In this document: piece after piece, positions 12,330-57,465 of the stretch | Layout: each line of letters starts with the position of its first letter | Position numbering within the stretch: position 1 is the stretch's first letter | Assembly (NCBI RefSeq): GCF_053078305.1 | Contig: NZ_CP166879.1 | Strand: one strand, 5' to 3' | DNA length: 64,000 nt | Position numbers and translations under genes: made by a program | The notes under the pieces: model-generated | Told to the model about the DNA's origin: nothing | Seen by the model: only the letters and a program-made list of their open reading frames with translations | Databases searched by the model: none

Positions 12330-12646
12330 AATATGCCGCCCCAAAGGGCGGCATTCGGGCTTACCTGCTGCTCTGAAGGTTGTTAATCACCAGTAAATTG
12401 TTACCGGAGAGACTCCGGTTATTATTTACCTCGGTTAACAGCGCACCAGAAACAATAAGTACGATACAAAAGCACCGTATCTTCATTGTGCGGTCCATGC
12501 GAAGACCGCATCACGACAGCACCACTGGCGATATTGCCGCGATAGCAAGCGCTGTGAAACACCTGCATTTACGGCCACGGAACATCCTTTCCTAAAGCCA
12601 GCGCCCGTTTGCGAGACGGCGGAAAGGGCCGGTGTCGATAATACGC
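12330..12646 (-). ncRNA. ryfA: ryfA-like RNA copy 1 (candidate small-protein mRNA, TimP/RyfA family)
   Basis: location between sseB and sseA; minus-strand terminator hairpin at 12332-12353; conserved internal hairpins; predicted length ~300 nt; 5' end inferred. Confidence 0.45.
12361..12498 (-). CDS. 45-codon small hydrophobic ORF inside ryfA-like copy 1 (MDRTMKIRCFCIVLIVSGALLTEVNNNRSLSGNNLLVINNLQSSR), candidate small membrane toxin
   Basis: hand-translated minus strand; conserved in copy 2 with 2 synonymous and 2 conservative changes; not in ORF track (below size cutoff). Confidence 0.4.
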   Translation of the reverse strand: MDRTMKIRCFCIVLIVSGALLTEVNNNRSLSGNNLLVINNLQSSR

Positions 12647-12661
12647 TAAATAAACAATAAT

Positions 12662-12704
12662 TACTCTCTTTTGCTTGACAAAAAGAGAGTTGCTGGCGAA
12701 TATT
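12662..12704. promoter_or_regulatory. palindromic divergent promoter region of ryfA-like locus copy 1
   Basis: inverted repeat ACTCTCTTTT-GCTTGAC-AAAAGAGAGT centred on TTGACA (plus) / TTGTCA (minus) -35-like hexamers. Confidence 0.35.
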
Positions 12705-12709
12705 GCTCT

Positions 12710-12812
12710 GCTGTGAAGCACCTGCGTTGCTCATGCAACACAAGTCAATCTGCTGGAGAGGCCGCGAACCAAACCGGCAACAAATAACCGCCTGATTTTG
12801 GCGGTTTTTTGT
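12710..12812 (+). ncRNA. candidate short plus-strand sRNA divergent from ryfA-like copy 1
   Basis: TTGACA-N18-AATATT promoter-like sequence at 12675-12704 and hairpin+T6 terminator at 12786-12812; internal hairpin GTTGC-loop-GCAAC conserved in copy 2 with loop change. Confidence 0.3.
12786..12812. terminator. bidirectional rho-independent terminator (copy 1)
   Basis: AACCGCC-TGATTT-GGCGGTT followed by TTTTTT. Confidence 0.55.
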
Positions 12813-12930
12813 TGCTTAAAGAAAGTGAATTTACATGTTTAAGTAATATCTTTTACCGGTTAGTATTTTTAATATTGAGCGGGATTTGTTTATATTTGTC
12901 TGAATTCGGACTAATAAGCCAGGTTATTTT

Positions 12931-13010
12931 ATTACTGACATATTGCGCCATTCTATGAACGTCGCTGGGGTGGTTTTTTGCATCACTTTAAACAGAATCG
13001 GATAATCTAA
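12931..13010 (+). pseudogene. duplicated 3' fragment of sseB carried on repeat unit 2
   Basis: near-identical to sseB codons for ...HIAPFYERRWGGFLRDFKQNRII* but without upstream gene. Confidence 0.55.
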
Positions 13011-13327
13011 AATATGCCGCCCCAAAGGGCGGCATTCGGGCTTACCTGCTGTTCTGAAGGTTGTTGACCACCAGTAAATTGTTGCCGGAGAGACTCCGGT
13101 TATTATTTACCTCGGTTAACAGCGCACCAGAAACAATAAGTACGATACAGAAGCACCGTATCTTCATTGTGCGGTCCATGCGAAGACCGCATCACGACAG
13201 CACCACTGGCGATATTGCCGCGATAGCAAGCACTGTGGGGTGCCTGTATTTACGGTCATGGAACATCCTTTCCTAAAGCCAGCGCCCGTTTGCGAGACGG
13301 CGAAAAGGGCCATTAAGAATAATACTC
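13011..13327 (-). ncRNA. ryfA: ryfA-like RNA copy 2
   Basis: 681-bp offset copy of 12330..12646 with conserved terminator hairpin at 13013-13034. Confidence 0.4.
13042..13179 (-). CDS. 45-codon small hydrophobic ORF, copy 2 (…VVNNLQNSR)
   Basis: same frame and length as 12361..12498; differences F(ttt>ttc) and G(ggt>ggc) synonymous, I>V and S>N conservative. Confidence 0.4.
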   Translation of the reverse strand: MDRTMKIRCFCIVLIVSGALLTEVNNNRSLSGNNLLVVNNLQNSR

Positions 13328-13391
13328 TCATGTTTGAATAATTACTCTGTTTATTATCTTGACACAGCCAGGCATAAAAGAGAGTATTTCA

Positions 13392-13495
13392 ACACTGTGG
13401 GGTGCCTGCGTTGCTCCGGCAACACAAGTCAACCTGCTGGAAAGGCCGCGAACCAGACCAGCAATAAAAAACCGCCAAATTCGGCGGTTTTTTAT
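13392..13495 (+). ncRNA. candidate short plus-strand sRNA, copy 2
   Basis: homolog of 12710..12812 ending at hairpin AAAAACCGCC-AAATTC-GGCGGTTTTT. Confidence 0.3.
13466..13495. terminator. bidirectional terminator shared by sseA and ryfA-like locus
   Basis: perfect hairpin flanked by A6 and T6, 15 bp beyond sseA stop. Confidence 0.6.
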
Positions 13496-13509
13496 TGCCT
13501 GTAAAAAGC

Positions 13510-19523: not shown

Positions 19524-21836
19524 ATGCCTCGCTTGTTAACCAAACGCGGCTGCTGGATAACGCTGGCAGCTGCGCCATTTCTCCTTTTTCTTGCAGCGTG
19601 GGGAGCAGATAAACTCTGGCCTCTACCGCTGCATGAAGTCAATCCCGCACGAGTGGTCGTGGCGCAGGATGGTACGCCGCTCTGGCGCTTCGCCGATGCT
19701 GACGGCATCTGGCGTTATCCTGTAACAATCGAAGATGTTTCTCCACGTTACCTTGAAGCGCTGATCAATTATGAAGATCGCTGGTTCTGGAAGCATCCTG
19801 GGGTGAATCCATTCTCGGTGGCGCGCGCAGCATGGCAAGATTTCACTTCGGGACGGGTTATTTCCGGTGGCAGCACGCTCACTATGCAGGTTGCTCGTCT
19901 GCTTGATCCTCACCCCAAAACATTTGGCGGCAAAATTCGCCAGCTCTGGCGCGCGTTGCAACTGGAGTGGCATTTGTCTAAGCGTGAAATTCTGACCTTG
20001 TATCTTAACCGCGCTCCGTTTGGCGGTACGTTGCAGGGGATCGGTGCGGCAAGTTGGGCTTATCTCGGAAAATCGCCTGCGAATTTAAGCTATTCCGAGG
20101 CGGCAATGCTGGCGGTTTTGCCGCAAGCGCCCAGCCGTCTTCGCCCGGATCGTTGGCCGGAGCGTGCCGAAGCCGCGCGTAATAAAGTGCTCGAACGGAT
20201 GGCCGTGCAAGGTGTGTGGTCCCGTGAGCAGGTAAAAGAGTCAAGGGAAGAACCCATCTGGCTGGCACCCCGACAAATGCCGCAACTGGCACCGCTGTTT
20301 TCGCGCATGATGCTCGGTAAAAGTAAAAGCGACAAAATCGTTACTACGCTGGATGCCGGGCTTCAGCGACGTCTGGAAGAACTGGCGCAAAACTGGAAAG
20401 GACGATTGCCGCCGCGCAGCTCACTGGCGATGATCGTGGTTGATCATACCGATATGCGTGTTCGCGGCTGGGTGGGATCGGTAGATCTCAACGATGATTC
20501 ACGCTTTGGTCATGTTGATATGGTCAATGCGATCCGATCGCCAGGATCGGTGCTCAAACCGTTTGTTTATGGTCTGGCGCTGGATGAAGGCTTGATCCAC
20601 CCGGCATCACTGCTGCAAGACGTCCCCCGGCGCACCGGTGATTATCGACCAGGTAACTTTGATAGCGGTTTTCATGGCCCGATCAGCATGAGCGAGGCGC
20701 TGGTGCGCTCGCTGAATTTACCTGCTGTGCAGGTACTGGAAGCCTATGGACCGAAACGGTTTGCGGCAAAGTTACGCAATGTTGGATTGCCGTTATATTT
20801 GCCCAACGGTGCGGCGCCGAATCTTTCGCTCATTCTCGGCGGCGCTGGTGCAAAACTGGAAGATATGGCGGCAGCGTATACCGCGTTTGCTCGCCACGGC
20901 AAGGCAGGCAAATTGCGCTTACAGCCTGACGATCCGCTGCTTGAACGGCCTTTAATGTCGTCGGGGGCTGCGTGGATCATTCGCCGGATTATGGCTGATG
21001 AAGCGCAACCCTTGCCGGATGGTGCCTTGCCGCGCGTCGCCCCACTGGCATGGAAAACGGGCACCAGCTATGGCTATCGTGACGCCTGGGCGATTGGGGT
21101 TAACGCTCGCTATGTCATTGGGATCTGGACTGGCAGACCGGACGGCACGCCCGTTGTTGGTCAGTTTGGTTTTGCCAGCGCCGTACCATTGTTGAATCAG
21201 GTCAATAATATCTTACTGTCGCGCAGTGCTAATCTGCCGGAAGACCCGCGCCCGAACTCAGTCACTCGTGGCGTTATCTGCTGGCCGGGCGGACAGTCTT
21301 TGCCGGAAGGTGACGGTAACTGTCGCCGCCGCCTGGCAACCTGGCTGCTGGACGGGAGTCAGCCGCCAACTCTATTACTGCCGGAGCAGGAAGGCATTAA
21401 TGGCATTCGTTTCCCCATCTGGCTGGATGAAAATGGCAAACGTGTTGCCGCTGATTGCCCTCAGGCGCGACAAGAAATGATAAATGTCTGGCCGCTACCG
21501 CTGGAACCCTGGTTGCCCGCATCAGAACGCCGCGCTGTGCGCTTACCACCGGCCTCGACAATTTGCCCGCCATACGGTCACGATGCCCAGCTCCCGCTGC
21601 AGCTGACAGGCGTTCGCGATGGCGAGATTATTAAACGTTTACCGGGCGCAGCGGAAGCGACTTTGCCGTTGCAATCAAGTGGAGGGGCAGGTGAACGCTG
21701 GTGGTTTCTGAATGGCGAACCGTTAACTGAACGCGGGCGCAACGTGACCCTGCATTTGACGGATAAAGGTGATTATCAATTGCTGGTGATGGATGACGTA
21801 GGGCAAATCGCGTCAGTACATTTTTCATTTCAGTGA
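19524..21836 (+). CDS. pbpC: penicillin-binding protein 1C (PbpC)
   Basis: 770-aa ORF; glycosyltransferase and transpeptidase (SVLKP) motifs; start abuts yfhM stop. Confidence 0.9.
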   Translation: MPRLLTKRGCWITLAAAPFLLFLAAWGADKLWPLPLHEVNPARVVVAQDGTPLWRFADADGIWRYPVTIEDVSPRYLEALINYEDRWFWKHPGVNPFSVARAAWQDFTSGRVISGGSTLTMQVARLLDPHPKTFGGKIRQLWRALQLEWHLSKREILTLYLNRAPFGGTLQGIGAASWAYLGKSPANLSYSEAAMLAVLPQAPSRLRPDRWPERAEAARNKVLERMAVQGVWSREQVKESREEPIWLAPRQMPQLAPLFSRMMLGKSKSDKIVTTLDAGLQRRLEELAQNWKGRLPPRSSLAMIVVDHTDMRVRGWVGSVDLNDDSRFGHVDMVNAIRSPGSVLKPFVYGLALDEGLIHPASLLQDVPRRTGDYRPGNFDSGFHGPISMSEALVRSLNLPAVQVLEAYGPKRFAAKLRNVGLPLYLPNGAAPNLSLILGGAGAKLEDMAAAYTAFARHGKAGKLRLQPDDPLLERPLMSSGAAWIIRRIMADEAQPLPDGALPRVAPLAWKTGTSYGYRDAWAIGVNARYVIGIWTGRPDGTPVVGQFGFASAVPLLNQVNNILLSRSANLPEDPRPNSVTRGVICWPGGQSLPEGDGNCRRRLATWLLDGSQPPTLLLPEQEGINGIRFPIWLDENGKRVAADCPQARQEMINVWPLPLEPWLPASERRAVRLPPASTICPPYGHDAQLPLQLTGVRDGEIIKRLPGAAEATLPLQSSGGAGERWWFLNGEPLTERGRNVTLHLTDKGDYQLLVMDDVGQIASVHFSFQ

Positions 21837-21930
21837 AATATACAAAATATTTATTAATCTAATTATGGTATTTATATTTGGAATGCATTAATAATTTAAT
21901 AATCTCACGTTTTTTTAAACGACTAATTAT

Positions 21931-21944
21931 TTGATTGTTATCAG
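21931..21944 (+). promoter_or_regulatory. FNR-like binding site upstream of DMSO-reductase-family operon
   Basis: TTGATTGTTATCAG matches TTGAT-N4-ATCAA at 9/10; 56 bp upstream of ATG in an AT-rich region. Confidence 0.35.
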
Positions 21945-21999
21945 CATTGTTCTCGAATAAATACGTGAATATTTATTTTTTCATTTTCGGGAACGCAAG

Positions 22000-24381
22000 A
22001 TGGATACGCCAGACGAAAAGGAACGCATTACATTTCCGCAAGTATCACGACGTAGTTTTTTACAAGCGACTTCCGCGCTTATCACTTTGCCTTTTATTTC
22101 TTATACCGTAAAGGCGCAATCCCCAGATGCGTCGCCAGAAGTTACAGCTCCAGTAGCTGATAAAGTCGTGCCCACCTGTAGCACATTTGACTGCGGTGGT
22201 AAGTGCGATATTCGGGCGCATATGCGCGACGGTGTGGTGACGCAAATTACCACGCTTCCCGATAACGAACTGGATCCACAAATGCCGATTATGCGCGCCT
22301 GTGTTCGTGGTTGCGGCTATCGTAAATTTGTTTATCATCCAGACCGCCTCAAATATCCGATGAAACGGGTCGGTAAACGGGGCGAGGGGAAATTTGAGCG
22401 TATTTCATGGGATGAGGCGACGACCTTAATTGCCGATAACCTGAAAAGGATCACGCAACAATATGGCCCGGCTTCACGTTATGTCCATGTCGGGACGGCT
22501 GTTTCTGGTGGAACATTTTCTGGTGATGCGATGGCGCGTCGGCTGTTAAATTTAACCGGTGGTTATCTTGAATATTATCACTCAGTTAGTCTGGGTAATA
22601 CTGCGGCGGCAACGCCTTACACGTATGGCGTGGCGGCCAGCGGTAACTCGATGGATACTCTTCTGGATACCAAACTGGTGATCCTCTGGGGGCATAACCC
22701 AACGGAAACCATCTTCGGTCACACCAATTACTTTTTTCAAAAAATGAAGCAAAACGGTACGCGTTTTATCGTGGTAGATCCGCGTTATTCCGACACTGTA
22801 TCTTCGCTTGCCGATCAGTGGATCCCGCTGCTGCCGACCACGGACAATGCGTTGATGGACGCGATGATGTACGTCATTATCAGCGAAAATCTCCACAATA
22901 AGACATTTATCGACACATATACTCTCGGTTTTGATGAAAACTCTATGCCAGAAGGCGTACCAGCCAACGAATCGTTGGTTGCCTACCTTTTTGGCGCAAA
23001 AGATGGGATACACAAAACGCCGGAATGGGCAGAAAAAATTACCCACGTTCCAGCACAATCCATTCGTCAACTGGCACGCGATTACGCCACTACAAAACCC
23101 GCAGCGTTGATTCAGGGATGGGGGCCACAGCGACATATTTGCGGCGAACGCACCGCCCGAGGTTCAACTTTACTGGCCTCGATTACCGGTAACGTCGGCA
23201 TCAAAGGTGGCTGGGCGGCAGGTTACGGCGGTAGTTCTAATCGTAAATTCTGCGTTGGACCAGATATGCCAGAAAATCCGGTACAAGCGAAAATCTCGAT
23301 TATGAACTGGATGCAGGCGGCGGATGATGCTTCTAAAGTTACGCCGCAAGATGGGCTTAAAGGTGTCGATAAACTCGACAGTAATATCCGCCTGCTGTTC
23401 TCACTGGCAGGTAATTATCTGGCGAACCAGAACCCGGACGTCCACCAGGCCGCGAAGCTCCTTGAAGACGAATCTAAAATAGAATTCATCGTACTCAGCG
23501 ATCTGTTCATGACTCCGAGCGCGAAATATGCCGATGTGTTGCTGCCGGAAACCAGCTTTATGGAACGCTGGAATATCGGCGAAACATGGGGAACTGCGAG
23601 CTATCTTATTCTGTCAGAAAAACTGATTGAGCCGGATTTTGAACGTCGCACCGATTATGACTGGTTGCGTGACGTGGCGAAAAAACTGGGTGTCGAAGCC
23701 GAGTTCAGTCAAGGACGTGATGAGAAGCAATGGGTAGAGCATATCTGGGAGCAAACTCGTCTGGCGATGCCGGATGAAAATTTGCCGGACTTCGCGACCC
23801 TGCAAAAAACACGTCGACATCTTTTTAAAAGTGCGCCGCACATCGCTTTCGAAGCAAATATTCGCGATCCGCAGAATAATCCTTTCCCGACGCCTTCCGG
23901 CAAAATTGAGATCTTCTCTAAGCGTCTTTTTGATATGCAAGATCCAGAAATTCCCGCGCTTTCGCACTATGTCCCTGCATTTGAAGGGCCAGAAGATAAA
24001 CTGACGGCGAAATACCCGTTGCAGCTCATCACCTGGAAAGGGAAAAACCGTGCTAATTCCACCCAGTATGCTAACCCGTGGCTGCAAGAAGTTCAGACGC
24101 AAAAACTCTGGCTGAATCCGCAAGATGCAAAACAGCGCGGGATTAGCGAAGGAGATAGCGTAAAAATTTATAACGATCGTGGTGTGAGCATTATCCCGGT
24201 GGAAATAACCCCCCGTATCATCCCTGGCGTAGTTGCTATGCAGGCGGGGGCATGGTGGCAACCGGATGCACAAGGTATCGATCGCGGAGGCTGTGCCAAT
24301 GTACTGAGTTCGACCCGCATTACGGCGCTGGCGAAAGGGAATTCGCATCAAACAATGCTGGTGGAGGTTGAGAAAGCATGA
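22000..24381 (+). CDS. molybdopterin (DMSO reductase family) oxidoreductase catalytic subunit with Tat signal
   Basis: 793 aa; SRRSFLQATSAL twin-arginine motif; N-terminal CxxCxxxC Fe-S motif (CSTFDCGGKC). Confidence 0.85.
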   Translation: MDTPDEKERITFPQVSRRSFLQATSALITLPFISYTVKAQSPDASPEVTAPVADKVVPTCSTFDCGGKCDIRAHMRDGVVTQITTLPDNELDPQMPIMRACVRGCGYRKFVYHPDRLKYPMKRVGKRGEGKFERISWDEATTLIADNLKRITQQYGPASRYVHVGTAVSGGTFSGDAMARRLLNLTGGYLEYYHSVSLGNTAAATPYTYGVAASGNSMDTLLDTKLVILWGHNPTETIFGHTNYFFQKMKQNGTRFIVVDPRYSDTVSSLADQWIPLLPTTDNALMDAMMYVIISENLHNKTFIDTYTLGFDENSMPEGVPANESLVAYLFGAKDGIHKTPEWAEKITHVPAQSIRQLARDYATTKPAALIQGWGPQRHICGERTARGSTLLASITGNVGIKGGWAAGYGGSSNRKFCVGPDMPENPVQAKISIMNWMQAADDASKVTPQDGLKGVDKLDSNIRLLFSLAGNYLANQNPDVHQAAKLLEDESKIEFIVLSDLFMTPSAKYADVLLPETSFMERWNIGETWGTASYLILSEKLIEPDFERRTDYDWLRDVAKKLGVEAEFSQGRDEKQWVEHIWEQTRLAMPDENLPDFATLQKTRRHLFKSAPHIAFEANIRDPQNNPFPTPSGKIEIFSKRLFDMQDPEIPALSHYVPAFEGPEDKLTAKYPLQLITWKGKNRANSTQYANPWLQEVQTQKLWLNPQDAKQRGISEGDSVKIYNDRGVSIIPVEITPRIIPGVVAMQAGAWWQPDAQGIDRGGCANVLSSTRITALAKGNSHQTMLVEVEKA

Positions 24382-25007
24382 GCCAATTTAAAGAATTTGC
24401 ATCTGTCAGCGACAAACAATTAGGGTTCTTTATTGACTCTTCGCGTTGTTCTGGCTGTAAAGCGTGTCAGGTGGCCTGTAAAGACAAAAACAACCTTGAG
24501 GTTGGGCGACGTTTTCGCCGCGTGTATGAAGTGAACGGCGGTGGCTTCATCGCCACTGGAGAGGGCGGTGTGAGTCATAATGTCTTTGCTTATACCCTTT
24601 CTGTTTCCTGTAACCATTGCGCGGATCCGATCTGTACCAAAAATTGCCCGACGATGGCGATGCATAAGCGTCCCGGAGACGGCATTGTGCGCGTGAATAC
24701 TGATAAGTGCGTCGGTTGCGGTTACTGCGCCTGGTCCTGTCCTTACGGCGCACCACAAATGAATGAGCAGACCGGGCAGATGTCGAAATGCGATTTCTGT
24801 ATTGATCTGCAAGCTAAAGGAGAACAACCCATTTGCGTGGCAACGTGCCCGTTGGGGGCGATTAAGTTCGGCCCTATTGATGAGTTGCGTGAAAAGTATG
24901 GCGATGTCAGTGATGTGAAAGGTTTACCTGATTCGTCGATTACGCAGCCAAATCTGGTGATTAAACCGCATCAGGGCGCGGAAAAGGAGGCGTCACATCA
25001 TGCATGA
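24378..25007 (+). CDS. 4Fe-4S ferredoxin-type electron transfer subunit (DmsB-like)
   Basis: 209 aa with multiple CxxCxxCxxxCP motifs; ATGA overlap with upstream gene. Confidence 0.85.
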   Translation: MSQFKEFASVSDKQLGFFIDSSRCSGCKACQVACKDKNNLEVGRRFRRVYEVNGGGFIATGEGGVSHNVFAYTLSVSCNHCADPICTKNCPTMAMHKRPGDGIVRVNTDKCVGCGYCAWSCPYGAPQMNEQTGQMSKCDFCIDLQAKGEQPICVATCPLGAIKFGPIDELREKYGDVSDVKGLPDSSITQPNLVIKPHQGAEKEASHHA

Positions 25008-25821
25008 ATTACCGTTAATGGCTTTTACGCTGTTGTTACAGGCATCGGTCGGTATGACGTTGTGGCTGGCGTTTCTTCATCGTCATATTTTAATCACCTC
25101 CAGTGCCCGCCCGGTTATGCGACCGCCATTACTGTTGGCTTTTTTGGCCGGGGCAGTAGGGTTACTGATTTCTACCTTACACCTGGGTTATCCACTTAAT
25201 GCGATGCATGCGCTAAGTCACTTTTCCAGTTCATGGCTGAGTCGGGAAATTATCTTTGGTGCGCTGTATCTGGCGCTATTGGGTTTAACCACATTACTGG
25301 TCATGTTACACAAAGGCGGCTGGCAACTCCTTCTTATGCTAGCGGCAGTGGTCGGAATTGTTGATGTTTTCTGCATGGCGCAAGTTTACATCCATACGTC
25401 GATTATCACCTGGCAGCATTACAACACGCTGATTATGTTCTTAGGTACAGTGGGAATTCTCGGTTCAGCGCTGGTAGCAGTGTTTCGTATTAGCGGAATT
25501 TTGCCGCAGATTGATGCCCTGCGTAATGGATGCGTGTTGGTGATCGCTCTCCTGGTTCTGTTGCGCTTGTTGGTTCAGCCGTTGTGGGTAGGGGATTTAA
25601 CGGCGAATGCGATGCAGATAGCTACACTGCCACATGCGCCATTAGCGATGCTGGGACAGTTAAAACCCATACTGACACTAAGCTGGGGAATTTCCGTCAT
25701 TGGGATGATGTTCTTTGCTGTCGGTGGTTGTAAAAAGAATATCCCTGCGGCGTTATTCGGTAGCGTACTGCTAGTGGGCAGTGAAGTTATGCTGCGTTTT
25801 GTCTTTTTTAGTATCGGCTAA
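25000..25821 (+). CDS. integral membrane anchor subunit (DmsC-like)
   Basis: 273 aa, highly hydrophobic multi-TM; 8-bp overlap with upstream gene. Confidence 0.75.
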   Translation: MHELPLMAFTLLLQASVGMTLWLAFLHRHILITSSARPVMRPPLLLAFLAGAVGLLISTLHLGYPLNAMHALSHFSSSWLSREIIFGALYLALLGLTTLLVMLHKGGWQLLLMLAAVVGIVDVFCMAQVYIHTSIITWQHYNTLIMFLGTVGILGSALVAVFRISGILPQIDALRNGCVLVIALLVLLRLLVQPLWVGDLTANAMQIATLPHAPLAMLGQLKPILTLSWGISVIGMMFFAVGGCKKNIPAALFGSVLLVGSEVMLRFVFFSIG

Positions 25822-26675
25822 TGTTAAGTCATAACATAACGATTGGCGCGGAATGCGCGCGCCAACGCTTTCGTTTTGCAACATGTCATGCCTGTGTCGA
25901 GGCTTGCCCGGCACAGGCGCTAACGCTGACAGAAGAGGGCATAGCGGTCGACGCGGAACAATGTATTGAGTGTGCGGTTTGCCAGTTTATTTGTCCGCAA
26001 GAGGCTATTCGTGGCGTTAATTCCCCTTTACGTTATTTTCGCAATCACACCCTGGTCGCACCTTTCACCACTATTGCGCCGACGCTGGAAGAACTTTTGC
26101 TATGGCATAAAGAGCAGGGGATCACAGCGATCGCGATTGATCTGAGTCAGGCGAAGGCATGGGAGCGCGCATTATTGCTGTTAAACGAACGCTTACGGCA
26201 ATATGGCGAGGAAGGCTGGTCTGTGGTATCTCCACATACCAGTGAGGTGAATGTTTCCCGGCGTCGTTTGTTCCATGTGCAGCGTGCGGATGTTCAGATG
26301 ACACAAATACAACCAGGATTACGTCGGTTACATTATTTATGGCCCCAGATTAGTGATGCTCGCCCGATGATGGATCCTCAAAAGTGTCAGCTTTGCGGTG
26401 CATGCTGGCGGGCCTGCGAGCAACAGGTCTTTTCGCTTAACGAAGGCCATTTACAAATCAATGATGCCTTGTGTAACGGATGCCAAAATTGTATTGCTGT
26501 TTGTTTTCATCAGGCAATGACCGTTGAATTGACGATTCTACCGGCAAAAATTGTGAATCTTCATGCTAATCGCAAAGTCTGTAAAACCTGTCAAAAATCC
26601 TTTCTTACTTTTCAGCAAAATGCGCAAAATTGTCTTTATTGCCAACGTCATCGCTATGGGATGAGAGCACCATAA
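25821..26675 (+). CDS. cysteine-rich ferredoxin-like protein, fourth gene of the operon
   Basis: 284 aa; motifs CHACVEACP, CIECAVCQFICP, CQLCGACWRAC, CNGCQNCIAVC; TAATG stop/start overlap. Confidence 0.7.
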   Translation: MLSHNITIGAECARQRFRFATCHACVEACPAQALTLTEEGIAVDAEQCIECAVCQFICPQEAIRGVNSPLRYFRNHTLVAPFTTIAPTLEELLLWHKEQGITAIAIDLSQAKAWERALLLLNERLRQYGEEGWSVVSPHTSEVNVSRRRLFHVQRADVQMTQIQPGLRRLHYLWPQISDARPMMDPQKCQLCGACWRACEQQVFSLNEGHLQINDALCNGCQNCIAVCFHQAMTVELTILPAKIVNLHANRKVCKTCQKSFLTFQQNAQNCLYCQRHRYGMRAP

Positions 26676-26815
26676 AAGTCGAGTTGTTGCTAAAACTCAT
26701 TTTATTTTAAAAAAATGTTACCTTCATCAATAGTCAACGGCCCTGTTGCTCATTATAATCCGCGCCATCTCGTACGCTGGTACAGACAACAACAGAACAA
26801 TTTACAGAGGTAAAA

Positions 26816-37477: not shown

Positions 37478-37559
37478 TTATTCAGTCGATAGTAACCCGC
37501 CCTTCGGGGATAGCAAGCATTTTTTGCAAAAAGGGGTAGATGCAATCGGTTACGCTCTG

Positions 37560-40721: not shown

Positions 40722-40760
40722 GGCTATTATTTAAACTATTGTTTTATTTGATTTAGTGAG

Positions 40761-40800
40761 TGCCATTGATGATATTGACTGCATTATCAATGGCATTTTT
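40761..40800 (+). terminator. guaA terminator
   Basis: imperfect stem TGCCATTGATGAT / ATTATCAATGGCA followed by ATTTTT. Confidence 0.5.
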
Positions 40801-41105
40801 CATGGTATAAGGCCGACGCTGAATCGAAGATATAGCAAATACCATGTGACTGTATCAGCAAATGCCATGGTATCGACAACCGGGGGCATTGCAGCGCTGT
40901 GCTGATGCCATCGATGCCCGCTTTTAGTCAGAACACTCTCTCGACCCAAGCCTCCAGATCCTTAAATATGCGCCAGAGGAGCACCTCGTGATCGAAATTA
41001 TGAACAAGACAGCCGCCGCTCGGAATCGAAGTCTCCATATGGGTGAATAAGGTTTGCGGAAAACACGCTGAGAAAATAGAAAAGCGTCAATGAAGGGACA
41101 TAGCA

Positions 41106-42386
41106 ATGGCGATTAACGGAGTGGACGGTGTTAGCGCAGTCACCGTGGATGAACTACTCAAGCAAGGCCTTCGGATACCGAACTATCAACGCCCATACAG
41201 TTGGGAAGTATCGACCGCTCTACAACTGGTGGATGATCTCAGCGAAGCTCTTCGAGATACCGAAAGAAAAGATATTCCCTATGTTTTGGGTGCAATCATT
41301 CTTCACGATGATGGTGAGTATCTCAATGTAGTCGACGGACAGCAACGTCTGCTGACTTTGCGAATGATTCTTGCGGCCTTAGATCCGATAAATCACCAAA
41401 TTTCGGTGTCTGGTAACAGAGAAACCTCTGTCTCCCTGGTTTGGATAGAGCTTCAAAGGCGCCTGTCGCAGTTGGAAGATAAAAAAGAATTTTTGGATTT
41501 TATCTGTCACAAATGTCAGTTGGTGCGTATTGTGACGGACGATATTGATGAGGCATTCCGTGTCTTTGATTCCCAGAACTATCGCGGCAAACCGCTTGCC
41601 CCTCATGACTTGCTCAAAGCACACCACCTGCGCGAAATGCACGATGAGTCCGCTGCTATGAAAGTGGCTGTCGTTGAGGCTTGGGAAGCCGTAAATGATG
41701 AGGATCTGGACAGGCTTTTTTCTACTTTTTTATACCGGATATCCAAGTGGTCACGAGGAGAAAGCTCGCTCGAATTTGCTATTCGGGACATCGGTATGTT
41801 CAAGGGAATTTCATCACGATCCCACAGATCATTTTCGCCAAATCTGCGATATCACCTTGCAGCACAAGCCGCTATGCCACTTCTAAGTGCATGGGCGGTG
41901 TCCTCGACACATGATGCTCGAAATGCCGGGCGCAGCCGCTTTCAGCTTGATGCCCCGATAATCGCTGGGCGCTCATTTTTCGAGATGGTGGCATTCATGC
42001 TTGACGAATTGAAGATACTGGAAAAAGAGGTTATCGACAAAGGTTTCAAAAACTTTGGCCCATCTCAAAGTCGCTACCGCTACGTGTACGAATTGTTCAT
42101 TGCCGCTCTGCTTTGCTATACAAACAAGTTTGGCGATGAAGATGTGGATGAAGTGCGAAATAGGTTATTCGCATGGGCATATGCCTTGCGGGTCGAGTTA
42201 CTTCGTGTGCAATTTGTATCTGCTGACAACCGAGCTCGAGGTAAAAACGATGCAAATAAATCGCCTTTTGTTTTGCTACGCAACGCGATGACTGGAAGTG
42301 TTGTCCGCAAACTTCCAATAGCAAGTCAGCCATACAACGATAACCACGAAAAGGAACTCATTGCTTTTATCAAGGGGCTGCAATGA
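41106..42386 (+). CDS. DUF262-like (ParB/Srx-fold, GmrS-like) protein without nuclease domain; first gene of accessory two-gene cassette
   Basis: 426 aa; N-terminal IPNYQRPYSW and DGQQRL motifs at ~aa 25-80, later FDSQNYRGKPL motif; SD AAGGGA upstream; stop overlaps next start. Confidence 0.8.
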   Translation: MAINGVDGVSAVTVDELLKQGLRIPNYQRPYSWEVSTALQLVDDLSEALRDTERKDIPYVLGAIILHDDGEYLNVVDGQQRLLTLRMILAALDPINHQISVSGNRETSVSLVWIELQRRLSQLEDKKEFLDFICHKCQLVRIVTDDIDEAFRVFDSQNYRGKPLAPHDLLKAHHLREMHDESAAMKVAVVEAWEAVNDEDLDRLFSTFLYRISKWSRGESSLEFAIRDIGMFKGISSRSHRSFSPNLRYHLAAQAAMPLLSAWAVSSTHDARNAGRSRFQLDAPIIAGRSFFEMVAFMLDELKILEKEVIDKGFKNFGPSQSRYRYVYELFIAALLCYTNKFGDEDVDEVRNRLFAWAYALRVELLRVQFVSADNRARGKNDANKSPFVLLRNAMTGSVVRKLPIASQPYNDNHEKELIAFIKGLQ

Positions 42387-44335
42387 GCAAGAAGGAGTTG
42401 AAACCCGAACTGCTAACAGTAGGCAAGCTATTCACGGACAATTATCTGATTCCTATTTATCAACGGAACTATGCTTGGCGGGCCGAACAGATTGAGCAAC
42501 TTATCAGCGATATTCAAGACTCGGTTGTTGGGGGCCAGGACGACTATTTTCTTGGAAACCTTGTTGTAATCAAGCGGGGTAGAGAGGACGAGTTCGAGGT
42601 CATAGATGGACAACAACGACTTACAACCCTCTATCTGCTTCTGACCTTCCTGGAGCAAGACGGTGAGGGTGGGAAGCCGTCGATTGGCCATGCAGGCCAC
42701 TTGCAATATGAGTCGCGTGCACGGGCAACGGAAGCCCTGCGGCGAGTAGCACAGGAGGCGGCTAAGGGGCACGTCCGACCGCAGGGCTCCACGAGTAATG
42801 CAGATGCTGGCATCCATGAAGGCTACAGCATCATCAATCAGTTCTTCAAACAAAATGAAACCCTTAATTGCTCACGCGAAAAATTCTCCGATTTCTTGCT
42901 AACGAAGGTTACTGTCGTCCGTGCCTCGCTGCCACCCAATACAGATCTCAATCGCTACTTCGAGATCATGAACACTCGTGGGCAGCAACTCAAGCAGGTT
43001 GATATTGTTAAGGCTCGCCTGATGAGCAAGCTGCCCAATCAATATGAACGCGAATGCTTCGCCTGGGTTTGGGATGCCTGTGCTGAGATGGATTCTTATG
43101 TCCAGATGTCTCTGACCCGTGGTGACACCAGTTTGCGAAACAAAGTATTTGGCGATGAATGGTCCTGGCTGGAGGTGACCAGCTTCGCGTCGTTAATGGA
43201 AAGTCGTCCGCAATCCGGCATCAATTCTTCAAGGCAATCCTCCGAAGGGGTATCGTTGTCCTTGGATGAGGCGTTGTCAAAATACGCTAAAGAGATCGAG
43301 TCAAATTCCACTGAAGACGAGGGCAACGAGCGGTTTCGTTCGACTATTGAGTTTCCGGCCTTTCTGCTACACGTTCTAAGAATTATGAAAGGCGATGAGG
43401 TCGAAGACGAAGGCCAGCTTGACGACAAACGCCTCATCAAGTCATTTGACGACGCTGTAAATAATGTACCCGATGCTAAAGCCGATTGGGTGCGTAACTT
43501 TACATTCATGCTCCTCAAGTGCCGCAACCTCTTCGATGGCTTCATTTTGAAGCGTCAATTCACGGCGAACATCGGTGACGATGGCGATTGGTCTCTCCAG
43601 CGATTGAAGAAAGGCGGCGCGGACAAGAAGCCAACCCCGACGTATATCCATGTTTTCTCGGCCAGCAATGGAAACTTAGAGGAGGACGGCGGTGCTGACC
43701 CACATACCCGAGATGTATTGCTGCTTCAGTCCATGCTTCGGATAACCTACACTTCTCCGCGAACGATGCACTGGATTACCAAAGTTCTTCGCTGGCTATC
43801 CGTCAAAGCCCCTCAAGACGCGAAACATGCGGATCTTGCCGATTTGTTGAAGGGGTATGCCCGCAGCAAGGTCAAAGAGACATTCCCCTTTGAGGAAGAT
43901 CAGCAACCACAAGGGTTTGGTATCAGCCGCATCGTCTTTTCGTATCTCGACTATCTTCTGTTGAGCGATTCCTCAAAACGAGATTTCAAATTTCAGTTCA
44001 GAACTTCCATTGAGCACTTTTATCCACAGCATCCGGACAAAGAACAGTCGGGCGCGGTTGTTTCAGGTTCTAGCCTTAACCTGCTTGGCAACCTTGCGCT
44101 CGTAAGCGTCAGCGCGAACTCAAAATTCAGCAATAGCCTTCCCAGAGCGAAGGCCGAAAACTTCAAGGATACGATTGAACTTCAAAGTCCCAAGCTCAAG
44201 AGAATGGCGGAAATCACTCGAAATACAAGCTGGGACGATCAGCAGATAACAGCTCATCATGAAGAGATGGTGACATTGCTTCGTGATGATGTAAGTCTGG
44301 TGGAGGCAAGCGGAAGATCCTACCCGGGGCGTTGA
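42383..44335 (+). CDS. GmrSD/SspE-like protein: N-terminal DUF262-like domain fused to C-terminal DUF1524-like His-Me finger nuclease domain (putative modification-dependent or defence endonuclease)
   Basis: 650 aa; IPIYQRNYAW and DGQQRLTTL motifs; FEIMNTRGQQL; C-terminal SIEHFYPQHP ... GNLALVSVSANSKFSN. Confidence 0.8.
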   Translation: MSKKELKPELLTVGKLFTDNYLIPIYQRNYAWRAEQIEQLISDIQDSVVGGQDDYFLGNLVVIKRGREDEFEVIDGQQRLTTLYLLLTFLEQDGEGGKPSIGHAGHLQYESRARATEALRRVAQEAAKGHVRPQGSTSNADAGIHEGYSIINQFFKQNETLNCSREKFSDFLLTKVTVVRASLPPNTDLNRYFEIMNTRGQQLKQVDIVKARLMSKLPNQYERECFAWVWDACAEMDSYVQMSLTRGDTSLRNKVFGDEWSWLEVTSFASLMESRPQSGINSSRQSSEGVSLSLDEALSKYAKEIESNSTEDEGNERFRSTIEFPAFLLHVLRIMKGDEVEDEGQLDDKRLIKSFDDAVNNVPDAKADWVRNFTFMLLKCRNLFDGFILKRQFTANIGDDGDWSLQRLKKGGADKKPTPTYIHVFSASNGNLEEDGGADPHTRDVLLLQSMLRITYTSPRTMHWITKVLRWLSVKAPQDAKHADLADLLKGYARSKVKETFPFEEDQQPQGFGISRIVFSYLDYLLLSDSSKRDFKFQFRTSIEHFYPQHPDKEQSGAVVSGSSLNLLGNLALVSVSANSKFSNSLPRAKAENFKDTIELQSPKLKRMAEITRNTSWDDQQITAHHEEMVTLLRDDVSLVEASGRSYPGR

Positions 44336-44632
44336 CTTCTTTGAATAACCGCTTTTGGACGAATGTCCCTTGTGGAGTGCAAGTTGTCAGTTTAAAAGTG
44401 TTTTGCGTCGGGCGACACGATCAGTACAGCTCCCAGGTTTTTTTACCATGGTATTTTGTGTGGTATCGACATGCAAAGATAATGCTATTTTGTTGATTTT
44501 ATAGTGTTTTAAGGCGGCATTGATCATCGAGTGGGAATAAACCCTGTACATATTGCTGAAGTTTTCTTTTCGGATAAAACTTCAGCAGATTTTCACAGCA
44601 AACCCCTCTTATCTCTGGAGGTTTTTTTTACG

Positions 44633-44667
44633 CAAATTAAAAACCCATAACTCTCACGAATCATGGG
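44633..44667 (-). terminator. yfgI terminator
   Basis: minus-strand hairpin CCCATGATTCGTGAGAGTTATGGG followed by T-rich run. Confidence 0.4.
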
Positions 44668-44686
44668 CTTTGTGGTAGAAAGACGA

Positions 44687-52667: not shown

Positions 52668-53305
52668 TTACTCGTCGGCAGCGTAGCCCTGCGGCGGCAG
52701 ACGTTGACCATCCAGCCACGCGGCGTTTTCGTGCATTTTCAGACGACCATCGGCAAACCAGCTAATCACCAGTGGATAAATGGCGTGTTCCTGGGTTTGC
52801 ACGCGGGCGGTGACGTCATCTTCCGTATCACCAGCAAATACCGGGACTTTCGCCTGTAAAATAACCGGGCCACCGTCCAGTTCATCGGTGACGAAATGCA
52901 CCGATGTACCGTGCTCTTCATCACCATTTTCCAGCGCCTGACGATGGGTGTGTAATCCGGGATATTTCGGCAGCAGAGAAGGGTGAATGTTCAGCAAACG
53001 CCCGGCATAGTGGGAGACAAACGCCGGGCTGAGAATGCGCATAAAACCAGCCAGCACGACCACATCGGGTGCGTACATGTCGATTTCATGAATCAACTCC
53101 CGGTCATAGGCTTCACGACTGTCAAACGCGCTGGCGATGAGCGTATGCGTTGCAATACCCGCCTGGCGGGCGCGTTCAAGGCCGAACGCGTCGGCCTTAT
53201 TGCTGAAAACTGCCCGTACGGTGCCTTTAATTTTGTTGGTTTTACAGGCGTCAATAATTGCCTGCAAATTACTTCCGTTGCCGGAAATAAGCACCACAAT
53301 ATTCA

Positions 53306-53306
<1 letters not shown>
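52668..53306 (-). CDS. purN: phosphoribosylglycinamide formyltransferase PurN
   Basis: 212-aa ORF MNIVVLISGNGSNLQAIIDA. Confidence 0.95.
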
Positions 53307-54361
<1,055 letters not shown>

Positions 54362-54407
54362 TTACTTGCGGTAGAAAAATAAAATTCGGCGCAATTCTAA
54401 CAGGGAA

Positions 54408-54423
54408 AGCAAACGTTTGCGAG
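54408..54423. promoter_or_regulatory. PurR operator (pur box) upstream of purMN
   Basis: AGCAAACGTTTGCGAG contains the palindromic GCAAACGTTTGC core. Confidence 0.6.
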
Positions 54424-54667
54424 ACTGCTTTACACAACCTTTTTGCACGTCTTTTCCCCAGGCGCGCGGCGAAAGAAGATTTGTGCCAGGGCAAAGGTTA
54501 GTTTTCGGATGGAATAATCTTCTTTCATAACCATTTGAATATAAAATAACTTTATCTCAAACCGTTATCATTTTGACTAAAGTCAACGAAAATAATATTG
54601 CCGCCTTGAAGAAAGGAGGTATAATCCGTCGATTTTTTTTGTGGCTGCCCCTCAAAGGAGAAAGAGT

Positions 54668-55294
54668 ATGAAGATCGTGGAAGTCAAACACCCACTCGTC
54701 AAACACAAGCTGGGACTGATGCGTGAGCAAGATATCAGCACCAAGCGCTTTCGCGAACTCGCTTCCGAAGTGGGTAGCCTGCTGACTTACGAAGCGACCG
54801 CCGACCTCGAAACGGAAAAAGTAACTATCGAAGGCTGGAACGGCCCGGTAGAAATCGACCAGATCAAAGGTAAGAAAATTACCGTTGTGCCAATTCTGCG
54901 TGCGGGTCTGGGGATGATGGACGGTGTGCTGGAAAACGTTCCGAGCGCGCGCATCAGCGTTGTCGGTATGTACCGTAATGAAGAAACGCTGGAGCCGGTA
55001 CCGTACTTCCAGAAACTGGTTTCTAACATCGATGAGCGTATGGCGCTGATCGTTGACCCAATGCTGGCAACCGGTGGTTCCGTTATCGCGACCATCGACC
55101 TGCTGAAAAAAGCGGGCTGCAGCAGCATCAAAGTTCTGGTGCTGGTAGCTGCACCAGAAGGTATCGCTGCGCTGGAAAAAGCGCATCCGGACGTCGAACT
55201 GTATACCGCATCGATTGACCAGGGACTGAACGAGCACGGATACATTATTCCGGGCCTCGGCGATGCCGGTGACAAAATCTTTGGTACGAAATAA
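54668..55294 (+). CDS. upp: uracil phosphoribosyltransferase Upp
   Basis: ORF track 54641..55294; recognised start [15 protein letters not shown]; 208 aa. Confidence 0.95.
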
Positions 55295-55379: not shown

Positions 55380-56669
55380 ATGACGCGCCGTGCTATCGGG
55401 GTGAGTGAAAGACCGCCACTTTTACAGACAATCCCGCTTAGTTTGCAACATTTGTTCGCCATGTTTGGTGCAACCGTCCTGGTGCCCGTCTTATTTCATA
55501 TTAACCCGGCGACTGTACTGTTATTTAACGGTATTGGAACGCTGCTGTATCTCTTCATCTGTAAAGGGAAAATTCCGGCTTATCTTGGTTCCAGCTTTGC
55601 CTTTATTTCACCGGTATTGCTGCTGTTGCCGTTGGGGTATGAAGTCGCGCTGGGCGGCTTTATTATGTGCGGCGTGCTGTTTTGCCTGGTTTCTTTTATC
55701 GTGAAGAAAGCGGGGACCGGCTGGCTGGACGTGCTGTTTCCACCTGCGGCAATGGGCGCAATCGTTGCCGTCATCGGTCTGGAGCTGGCGGGCGTAGCTG
55801 CCGGTATGGCGGGTTTACTCCCGGCTGAAGGGCAAACGCCAGACTCCAAAACCATCATCATCTCTATTACCACCCTGGCGGTCACGGTTTTAGGTTCCGT
55901 GCTGTTCCGTGGTTTCCTGGCAATTATCCCGATTTTAATTGGCGTGCTGGTGGGGTACGCGCTCTCTTTCGCAATGGGAATTGTCGATACCACGCCGATT
56001 ATTAATGCTCACTGGTTTGCGCTGCCAACCCTCTATACGCCGCGCTTCGAGTGGTTTGCCATTCTGACTATTCTGCCAGCGGCGTTAGTGGTTATTGCCG
56101 AACACGTAGGGCACCTGGTAGTAACGGCTAATATCGTCAAAAAAGATCTGCTGCGCGATCCAGGTCTGCACCGTTCGATGTTTGCTAACGGCTTGTCGAC
56201 CGTGATTTCCGGCTTCTTTGGCTCCACGCCAAACACCACCTACGGGGAAAACATTGGCGTGATGGCGATCACCCGTGTTTACAGTACCTGGGTTATCGGC
56301 GGGGCGGCGATTTTCGCTATCCTGCTTTCCTGCGTCGGTAAACTGGCTGCCGCTATCCAGATGATCCCATTGCCGGTGATGGGCGGCGTTTCGCTGCTGC
56401 TTTATGGTGTCATCGGTGCTTCCGGTATTCGTGTTTTGATCGAATCGAAAGTGGATTACAACAAAGCACAGAACCTGATCCTGACTTCCGTGATTTTGAT
56501 CATCGGCGTCAGTGGCGCGAAGGTAAACATCGGCGCGGCGGAGTTGAAAGGTATGGCGCTGGCGACCATCGTCGGTATCGGCTTAAGTTTGATTTTCAAA
56601 CTGATCAGTGTGCTGCGCCCTGAAGAAGTGGTGCTGGACGCAGAAGACGCGGATATAACAGACAAATAA
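55380..56669 (+). CDS. uraA: uracil:proton symporter UraA
   Basis: ORF track 55338..56669; recognised start [16 protein letters not shown]; 429 aa. Confidence 0.9.
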
Positions 56670-56763: not shown

Positions 56764-57465
56764 CTGAACACACCGGCACAGCTCTCTTTGCCACTTTATC
56801 TTCCTGACGACGAAACCTTTGCAAGTTTCTGGCCGGGGGATAACTCCTCTTTACTGGCCGCGCTGCAAAACGTGCTGCGTCAGGAACATAGCGGTTACAT
56901 CTATCTCTGGGCACGCGAAGGCGCGGGGCGCAGCCATCTGCTGCACGCGGCTTGCGCGGAATTGTCGCAGCGTGGCGATGCGGTGGGCTATGTCCCGCTG
57001 GATAAACGCACCTGGTTTGTTCCGGAAGTGCTCGACGGTATGGAGCATTTGTCGCTGGTCTGTATCGACAACATTGAGTGTATTGCAGGCGATGAGTTGT
57101 GGGAGATGGCGATTTTCGATCTCTACAATCGAATTCTGGAATCGGGCAAAACACGGTTGTTGATCACCGGCGATCGTCCACCGCGGCAGTTGAATCTGGG
57201 ATTACCGGATCTCGCGTCGCGACTCGACTGGGGGCAGATCTACAAATTGCAGCCACTTTCTGATGAAGATAAGTTGCAGGCGCTACAGTTACGCGCGCGT
57301 TTGCGTGGTTTTGAACTGCCGGAAGATGTGGGGCGTTTCTTGCTGAAGCGGCTCGACAGAGAAATGCGCACGCTATTTATGACGTTGGATCAGTTGGATC
57401 GTGCGTCGATTACCGCGCAACGTAAATTGACCATTCCGTTTGTGAAAGAAATTCTGAAGTTGTAG
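56764..57465 (+). CDS. hda: DnaA regulatory inactivator Hda
   Basis: ORF track 56719..57465 starts at GTG; recognised 233-aa protein begins at CTG codon 56764 ([12 protein letters not shown]), as I recall from the literature. Confidence 0.75.

Follow-up and report, generated by a model that had tools for sequence, protein, structure and literature searches.

The published PurR operator upstream of purMN in an Escherichia coli genome: register, promoter context and conservation

The upp-purM region and its counterpart in E. coli K-12

The DNA analysed here is a single stretch of 64,000 nucleotides, referred to throughout as the window, in which purM and upp are divergent, as the preliminary description of this DNA had also noted, on either side of a common spacer of 324 bp. 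The genes that flank the spacer are the following.

52668..53306, minus strand: purN (GAR transformylase), second gene of the operon; from the open reading frame list and RefSeq annotation, its start overlapping the purM stop
53306..54343, minus strand: purM (AIR synthetase), first gene of the repressed operon; open reading frame with GTG start at 54343 per RefSeq annotation
54668..55294, plus strand: upp; open reading frame list and RefSeq annotation
55380..56669, plus strand: uraA; open reading frame list and RefSeq annotation

The GTG at 54343 is annotated as the purM start both in K-12 and in NZ_CP062811.1, which is 100% identical over a 1-kb query around the site, and the program-made open reading frame list extends purM to an earlier GTG at 54358. 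The same 1-kb query was matched with at least 95% identity in 5424 of the 5426 complete E. coli genomes. The 61 bp immediately around the site were likewise found in 5424 of these genomes, with an identity of at least 99% in 5308. Compared with K-12 MG1655 there are four point differences over 401 aligned bases, none of them in or near the operator or the purM promoter. Judged from its sequence, the window is E. coli of a strain other than K-12. The repressor gene purR lies outside the window; the K-12 purR was matched in 5424 of the 5426 complete E. coli genomes, a distribution by which purR is a core gene of the window's species.

The operator and its register

On the plus strand positions 54408..54423 read AGCAAACGTTTGCGAG by direct reading, and 54409..54420 within this string form the perfect 12-bp palindrome GCAAACGTTTGC, with its axis between C54414 and G54415 and thus a central CpG. 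The preliminary description had placed a PurR box with a palindromic core at 54408-54423, 65-80 bp upstream of the purM GTG; both the string and the core are present there, and the distance is correct with the annotated start at 54343. The site was accordingly well chosen, but its 16-mer was off by one base in register (54408..54423 in place of 54407..54422), omitting the outermost half-site base A54407, which is the final T of TCGCAAACGTTTGCTT, and adding G54423. The symmetric operator is the following.

54407..54422, minus strand: PurR operator (PUR box) of the purMN promoter, 16 bp, TCGCAAACGTTTGCTT in the purM sense; assigned by the published motif, the position weight matrix and conservation

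The centre of this symmetric 16-bp operator falls between 54414 and 54415; TCGCAAACGTTTGCTT occupies the nucleotides 64-79 upstream of the purM GTG, and the end of the box is 63 nt from the start codon. With the shift by one base and the assignment to the minus strand, the annotation of the site is confident.

The 64 kb of the window hold a single exact copy of GCAAACGTTTGC; in 100 shuffles that preserved dinucleotide composition there was none. When up to two mismatches were allowed there was no enrichment in the window, with 4 sites found versus 5.95 expected. Since this two-mismatch count is unremarkable, only the exact GCAAACGTTTGC and the full 16-bp matrix are informative.

Identity with published PurR sites

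In the ChIP-chip study of Cho et al. 2011 (PMC3159470, Table 1) a PurR peak at purM-purN is listed with the motif TCGCAAACGTTTGCTT, and its enrichment was log2 2.08 with adenine versus 0.98 without (PMC3159470). The reverse complement of 54407..54422 is identical to this motif, so that the assignment to the purine regulon made in the preliminary description is supported letter for letter. Compared with the consensus of Cho et al., ACGNAAACGTTTGCNT, a 16-bp near-palindrome with a central CpG, TCGCAAACGTTTGCTT is mismatched at position 1 only. The PurR site of the upp-purMN spacer has also been named as CGCAAACGTTTGCTT (PMC3266220), a sequence contained within the operator at 54407..54422. Deletion of AAACGTTTGCTT from a high-copy clone of the spacer gave a weaker phenotype, which the authors ascribed to titration of PurR (PMC3266220). 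The purMN operator was first described by He et al. 1990; PMC3159470, PMC3266220 and PMC10912719 cite this paper and Meng et al. 1990 for purR-dependent repression.

Comparison with the K-12 purMN operator, which had been proposed as a check, gave the same 16-mer, the same flanking promoter and the same position, with no difference at the site itself. Two further documented PurR sites are found in the window, bringing these to three.

37540..37555, minus strand: guaBA PurR ChIP-chip motif GCGTAACCGATTGCAT; unchanged versus published (PMC3159470)
59704..59719, plus strand: yfgO/yfgC PurR ChIP-chip motif CCGGAAGCGATTGCCT; unchanged versus published (PMC3159470)

Among other operators of the regulon, that of xanP (TGGCAAACGTTTGCTT) differs from the purMN site by one base and is of the same palindrome class with a central CpG, and those of purT, purHD and purF (the ACGAAAACGTTTGCGT type) are of the same 16-bp class, again with a central CpG, at other promoters. 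Relative to the xanP, purT, purHD and purF types the purMN site carries C and not A at position 4, and T and not A or G at positions 1 and 15. The intragenic operators of purB and purR share repressor and motif with the purMN box but lie within coding sequence and block elongation (PMC3159470, PMC4052901), whereas the purMN box overlaps a putative promoter and would block initiation.

Matrix scan of the window

A position weight matrix was built from the 27 other published 16-mers of PMC3159470, with purMN left out. A scan with a PurR matrix had been suggested in the preliminary description, and with this leave-one-out matrix the purMN site scored 17.0 bits (16.99), which is rank 2 of 128,000 window positions. 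From the exact score distribution the probability of a score of at least 16.99 is 9e-7 per position, and the chance matches expected at the purMN score are 0.115 per window and 0.0006 per 325-bp spacer. The genuine published sites span 12.1-24.8 bits, and the purMN score is middling among them because of the bases at positions 1, 4 and 15. Two lower matches lie within coding sequence and are absent from the ChIP table of PMC3159470, one at 25859..25874 (16.7 bits) in a gene for a 4Fe-4S protein and one at 57291..57306 in hda. The score alone is not decisive, since the highest-scoring position of the window is a site internal to uraA (18.0 bits).

A PurR-like 16-mer within uraA

55756..55771, minus strand: PurR-like 16-mer in uraA, ACGGCAACGATTGCGC; top matrix match in the window, 18.0 bits

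This 16-mer, which K-12 has as well, sits 1.35 kb from the purMN box and shares 15 of its 16 bases with the yieG operator as published. It was not found in the ChIP-chip table of PMC3159470. The 16-mer encodes the peptide GAIVAV, and among 31 relatives with the same peptide only 5 hold a score of at least 14 bits, which indicates that its synonymous positions drift freely. On this conservation (5/31) it was rejected as a functional PurR site and is most likely fortuitous, and it serves as a negative control which shows that the conservation test discriminates. There is a slim chance that PurR does bind here and forms an intragenic roadblock comparable to those in purB and purR. In that case expression of the uraA portion of upp-uraA would be damped, linking the uptake of uracil by E. 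coli to its purine status.

Conservation of the box upstream of purM

Loci were gathered by means of the PurM protein from 80 species of Gammaproteobacteria, a sampling that is independent of the site. A box was called at 14 bits or more within 400 bp upstream of purM, and orders were assigned from the record titles. By this measure 65 of the 80 species carry a box, centred 52-140 bp upstream of the purM start; as a control, 1.4% of 948 windows of 400 bp from the same loci reach 14 bits. Absence from relatives had been put forward in the preliminary description as the finding that would speak against the site, and the box is instead widely retained. Its distribution was as follows.

Enterobacterales: box in 41 of 41
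Vibrionales: box in 12 of 12
Pasteurellales: box in 10 of 12
Aeromonas: box in 2 of 2
Orbales: box in 0 of 2
Alteromonadales-like (Shewanella, Alteromonas, Pseudoalteromonas, Idiomarina and similar): box in 0 of 11

The two Pasteurellales without a box are Cricetibacter, where a degenerate site scores 11.6 bits, and Spirabiliibacterium, where there is no site. Orthologues of PurR have been described only in Enterobacterales, Pasteurellales and Vibrionales (PMC4052901), and Shewanella is without PurR (PMC3223726). The distribution of the box matches this published distribution of PurR, the presence of PurR being taken from PMC4052901 and PMC3223726, and neatly illustrates the co-evolution of a repressor with a site of its regulon. 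Aeromonas carries the box although PMC4052901 limits PurR to the three orders.

In 50 of the 80 loci upp is the divergent neighbour of purM, at an upstream distance below 600 bp. The box is present in Pasteurellaceae and in several enterics whose loci lack upp or have it at about 1.9 kb, and is absent in Shewanella and Parashewanella despite a retained divergent upp-purM arrangement. The box travels with purM and with PurR-bearing lineages, not with upp. In four Leclercia/Enterobacter loci (L004, L007, L011 and L013) the gap between upp and purM is about 1.9 kb, compared with 210-450 bp in most other enterics. A gap of this size suggests that something has been inserted there, and the box is still about 70 bp from purM.

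Other elements of the spacer

Alignment of the full spacer gave four conserved islands. One is the leader of upp, including T-tract and -10; the others are a palindrome resembling an FNR site, the PurR box together with a -10, and the ribosome-binding region of purM. The elements outside the purM promoter are listed below.

54471..54481 and 54516..54526: perfect inverted repeat of 11 nt, GAAAGAAGATT / AATCTTCTTTC, the arms 34 nt apart
54573..54586: FNR site of the upp-purMN spacer, TTGACTAAAGTCAA; published in PMC3266220
54620..54625, plus strand: upp promoter -10, TATAAT; from a sigma-70 scan
54631..54641: upp T-tract GATTTTTTTTG; conserved in the aligned enteric spacers

At the aligned FNR position other enteric genera carry TTGATCnnGATCAA. 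The T-tract GATTTTTTTTG is the one on which upp is known to be controlled through UTP-dependent reiterative transcription. Among the aligned spacers, the inverted repeat is part of a segment of about 90 bp that is limited to E. coli and E. albertii. The minus-strand RNA of the repeat folds at -17.2 kcal/mol (z = -3.6), and no Rfam match was obtained for the inverted-repeat region in a search of 54250..54750 with E up to 1. K-12 differs at one position of one arm, which on the minus strand would be a G-U wobble.

The putative purM promoter

When the Enterobacterales were aligned on the box, three variable bases were followed by CTGTTAGAAT in essentially all. CTGTTAGAAT has the form of an extended -10 (TG-n-TAGAAT), with the hexamer starting 7 nt after the box. 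In this box-anchored alignment the 25 nt upstream of the box show no conservation, so that box and CTGTTAGAAT together are a conserved island between variable flanks. The promoter elements placed from these data are the following.

54394..54402, minus strand: putative extended -10 of the purM promoter, TGTTAGAAT in the purM sense, supported by conserved spacing; TAGAAT hexamer at 54394..54399
54387, minus strand: putative purM transcription start, a G 7 nt after the -10; placed from the position of the -10

A generic sigma-70 scan of 54300..54700 returned the upp promoter only (TTGCCG-16-TATAAT) and no purM promoter. The scanner would have missed the latter because it has an extended -10 and no good -35. 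From this putative start the box would cover about -35 to -20 with its centre at -27.5, in agreement with PMC3266220, in which the PurR site is stated to be 28 nt upstream. The promoter-distal half-site, TCGCAA, is 17 bp from the -10 and shares 3 of 6 positions with TTGACA. The operator thus appears to occupy the place of both the -35 element and the spacer, and the box lies within or near what is probably the promoter and start of a purine-regulon unit.

The distance from the box to TAGAAT is 7 nt in Enterobacterales and Pasteurellales, 18 nt in Vibrionales and 23 nt in Aeromonas (loci L045, L050, L057, L058, L064-L068, L070, L072 and L074-L076 for the latter two, compared with L002-L043). 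This difference of 7 versus 18 or 23 nt implies that the operator has shifted by about one helical turn relative to the promoter between orders. In the Vibrionales the promoter-proximal half-site, TTGCTA, doubles as a -35.

Interpretation and alternative readings

Short palindromes arise randomly, and the uraA 16-mer, which looks fortuitous, scores higher than the purMN site; one may ask whether the latter is a chance match, or a structural element such as a cruciform or an RNA hairpin, with no regulatory role. The absence of the 12-mer from all shuffles and the very low expectation per spacer speak against chance, as does the conservation of the box in four orders at a fixed position while the flanks diverge. 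A structural role is opposed by the lack of any Rfam match in the spacer search described above and by the location of the box upstream of both putative transcription starts, which would place it in neither mRNA. Conservation together with the published ChIP data effectively refutes this reading, and its probability is negligible. The position of the box within a spacer common to both operons raises another question, whether it acts in both directions and lets PurR control upp-uraA as well, and PurR does regulate some pyrimidine genes, including carAB, pyrD and codBA (PMC3159470). The box is, however, centred some 205 bp upstream of the -10 of upp, well beyond the limits of that promoter, and keeps a constant distance to the purM -10. 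It is also retained next to purM in loci that lack upp or have it 1.9 kb off, and Shewanella and Parashewanella are without it in spite of retained synteny. Moreover, a mechanism of its own, UTP-dependent reiterative transcription, has been described for the control of upp. The main text of Cho et al. does not count upp among the units that PurR binds or regulates, with 0 mentions of the gene (PMC3159470), and we consider joint control of upp-uraA through this box highly unlikely.

The palindrome could also be targeted mainly by a paralogue of the LacI family with a nearly identical motif, for example the ribose repressor RbsR. PurR is a duplication of RbsR that kept the ancestral DNA motif, and the operators of RbsR have a very similar palindromic motif (PMC4052901). 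Repression of purHD by RbsR has also been reported (Shimada et al. 2013, cited in PMC10912719). The two proteins differ in that RbsR binds DNA without ligand and controls ribose genes, whereas PurR requires a purine corepressor (PMC4052901). The occupancy by PurR found by ChIP-chip at exactly this locus, higher with adenine (PMC3159470), and the lack of the box upstream of purM in lineages without PurR make RbsR as the main regulator extremely unlikely, although additional weak binding of RbsR at the box may occur.

With these alternatives weighed, we are very confident that PurR, the purine repressor of the LacI family, uses this site as its operator at purMN of E. coli, and no observation made here speaks against it. 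The purMN box is the published PurR operator and as such was already known; the recognition of this textbook operator from raw sequence was correct and serves as a sanity check only, and nothing fundamentally new is added to purine regulation.

In vivo occupancy, purR-dependent repression, corepressors and binding geometry are taken here from the literature, in which purMN is the E. coli example of a PurR dimer with hypoxanthine or guanine as corepressors, helix-turn-helix binding with opening of the minor groove, and a block of polymerase (PMC10912719); the mechanism is also covered by Cho et al. (PMC3159470). Applied to this locus, abundant hypoxanthine or guanine would place a corepressor-loaded PurR dimer on the TCGCAAACGTTTGCTT palindrome. 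The two helix-turn-helix motifs would each read a half-site from the major groove, and insertion of the hinge helices into the minor groove at the central CpG would bend the DNA. PurR on a box that covers about -35 to -20 would exclude RNA polymerase and so repress initiation of purM-purN. A block of this kind would be expected because the box ends 7 nt before the extended -10.

Segments of the window that differ from K-12

Three regions away from the upp-purM spacer set the window apart from K-12. Between pbpC and ndk, 4.9 kb (21829..26683) are absent from K-12 and hold a four-gene operon of the DMSO/selenate-reductase family, with A, B and anchor subunits and a 4Fe-4S protein. The PurR-like 16-mer at 25859..25874 lies inside the last gene of this island. 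A segment of 4 kb between guaA and yfgI (40722..44683) is likewise absent from K-12 and carries two adjacent DUF262 domain-containing proteins, according to the annotation of the matching RefSeq genome; this pair may be a defence-type island. At about 12616..13496, in the small-RNA and toxin region ryfA/timP/timR, K-12 alignments with 86-90% identity overlap one another, which suggests an extra or rearranged copy relative to K-12.
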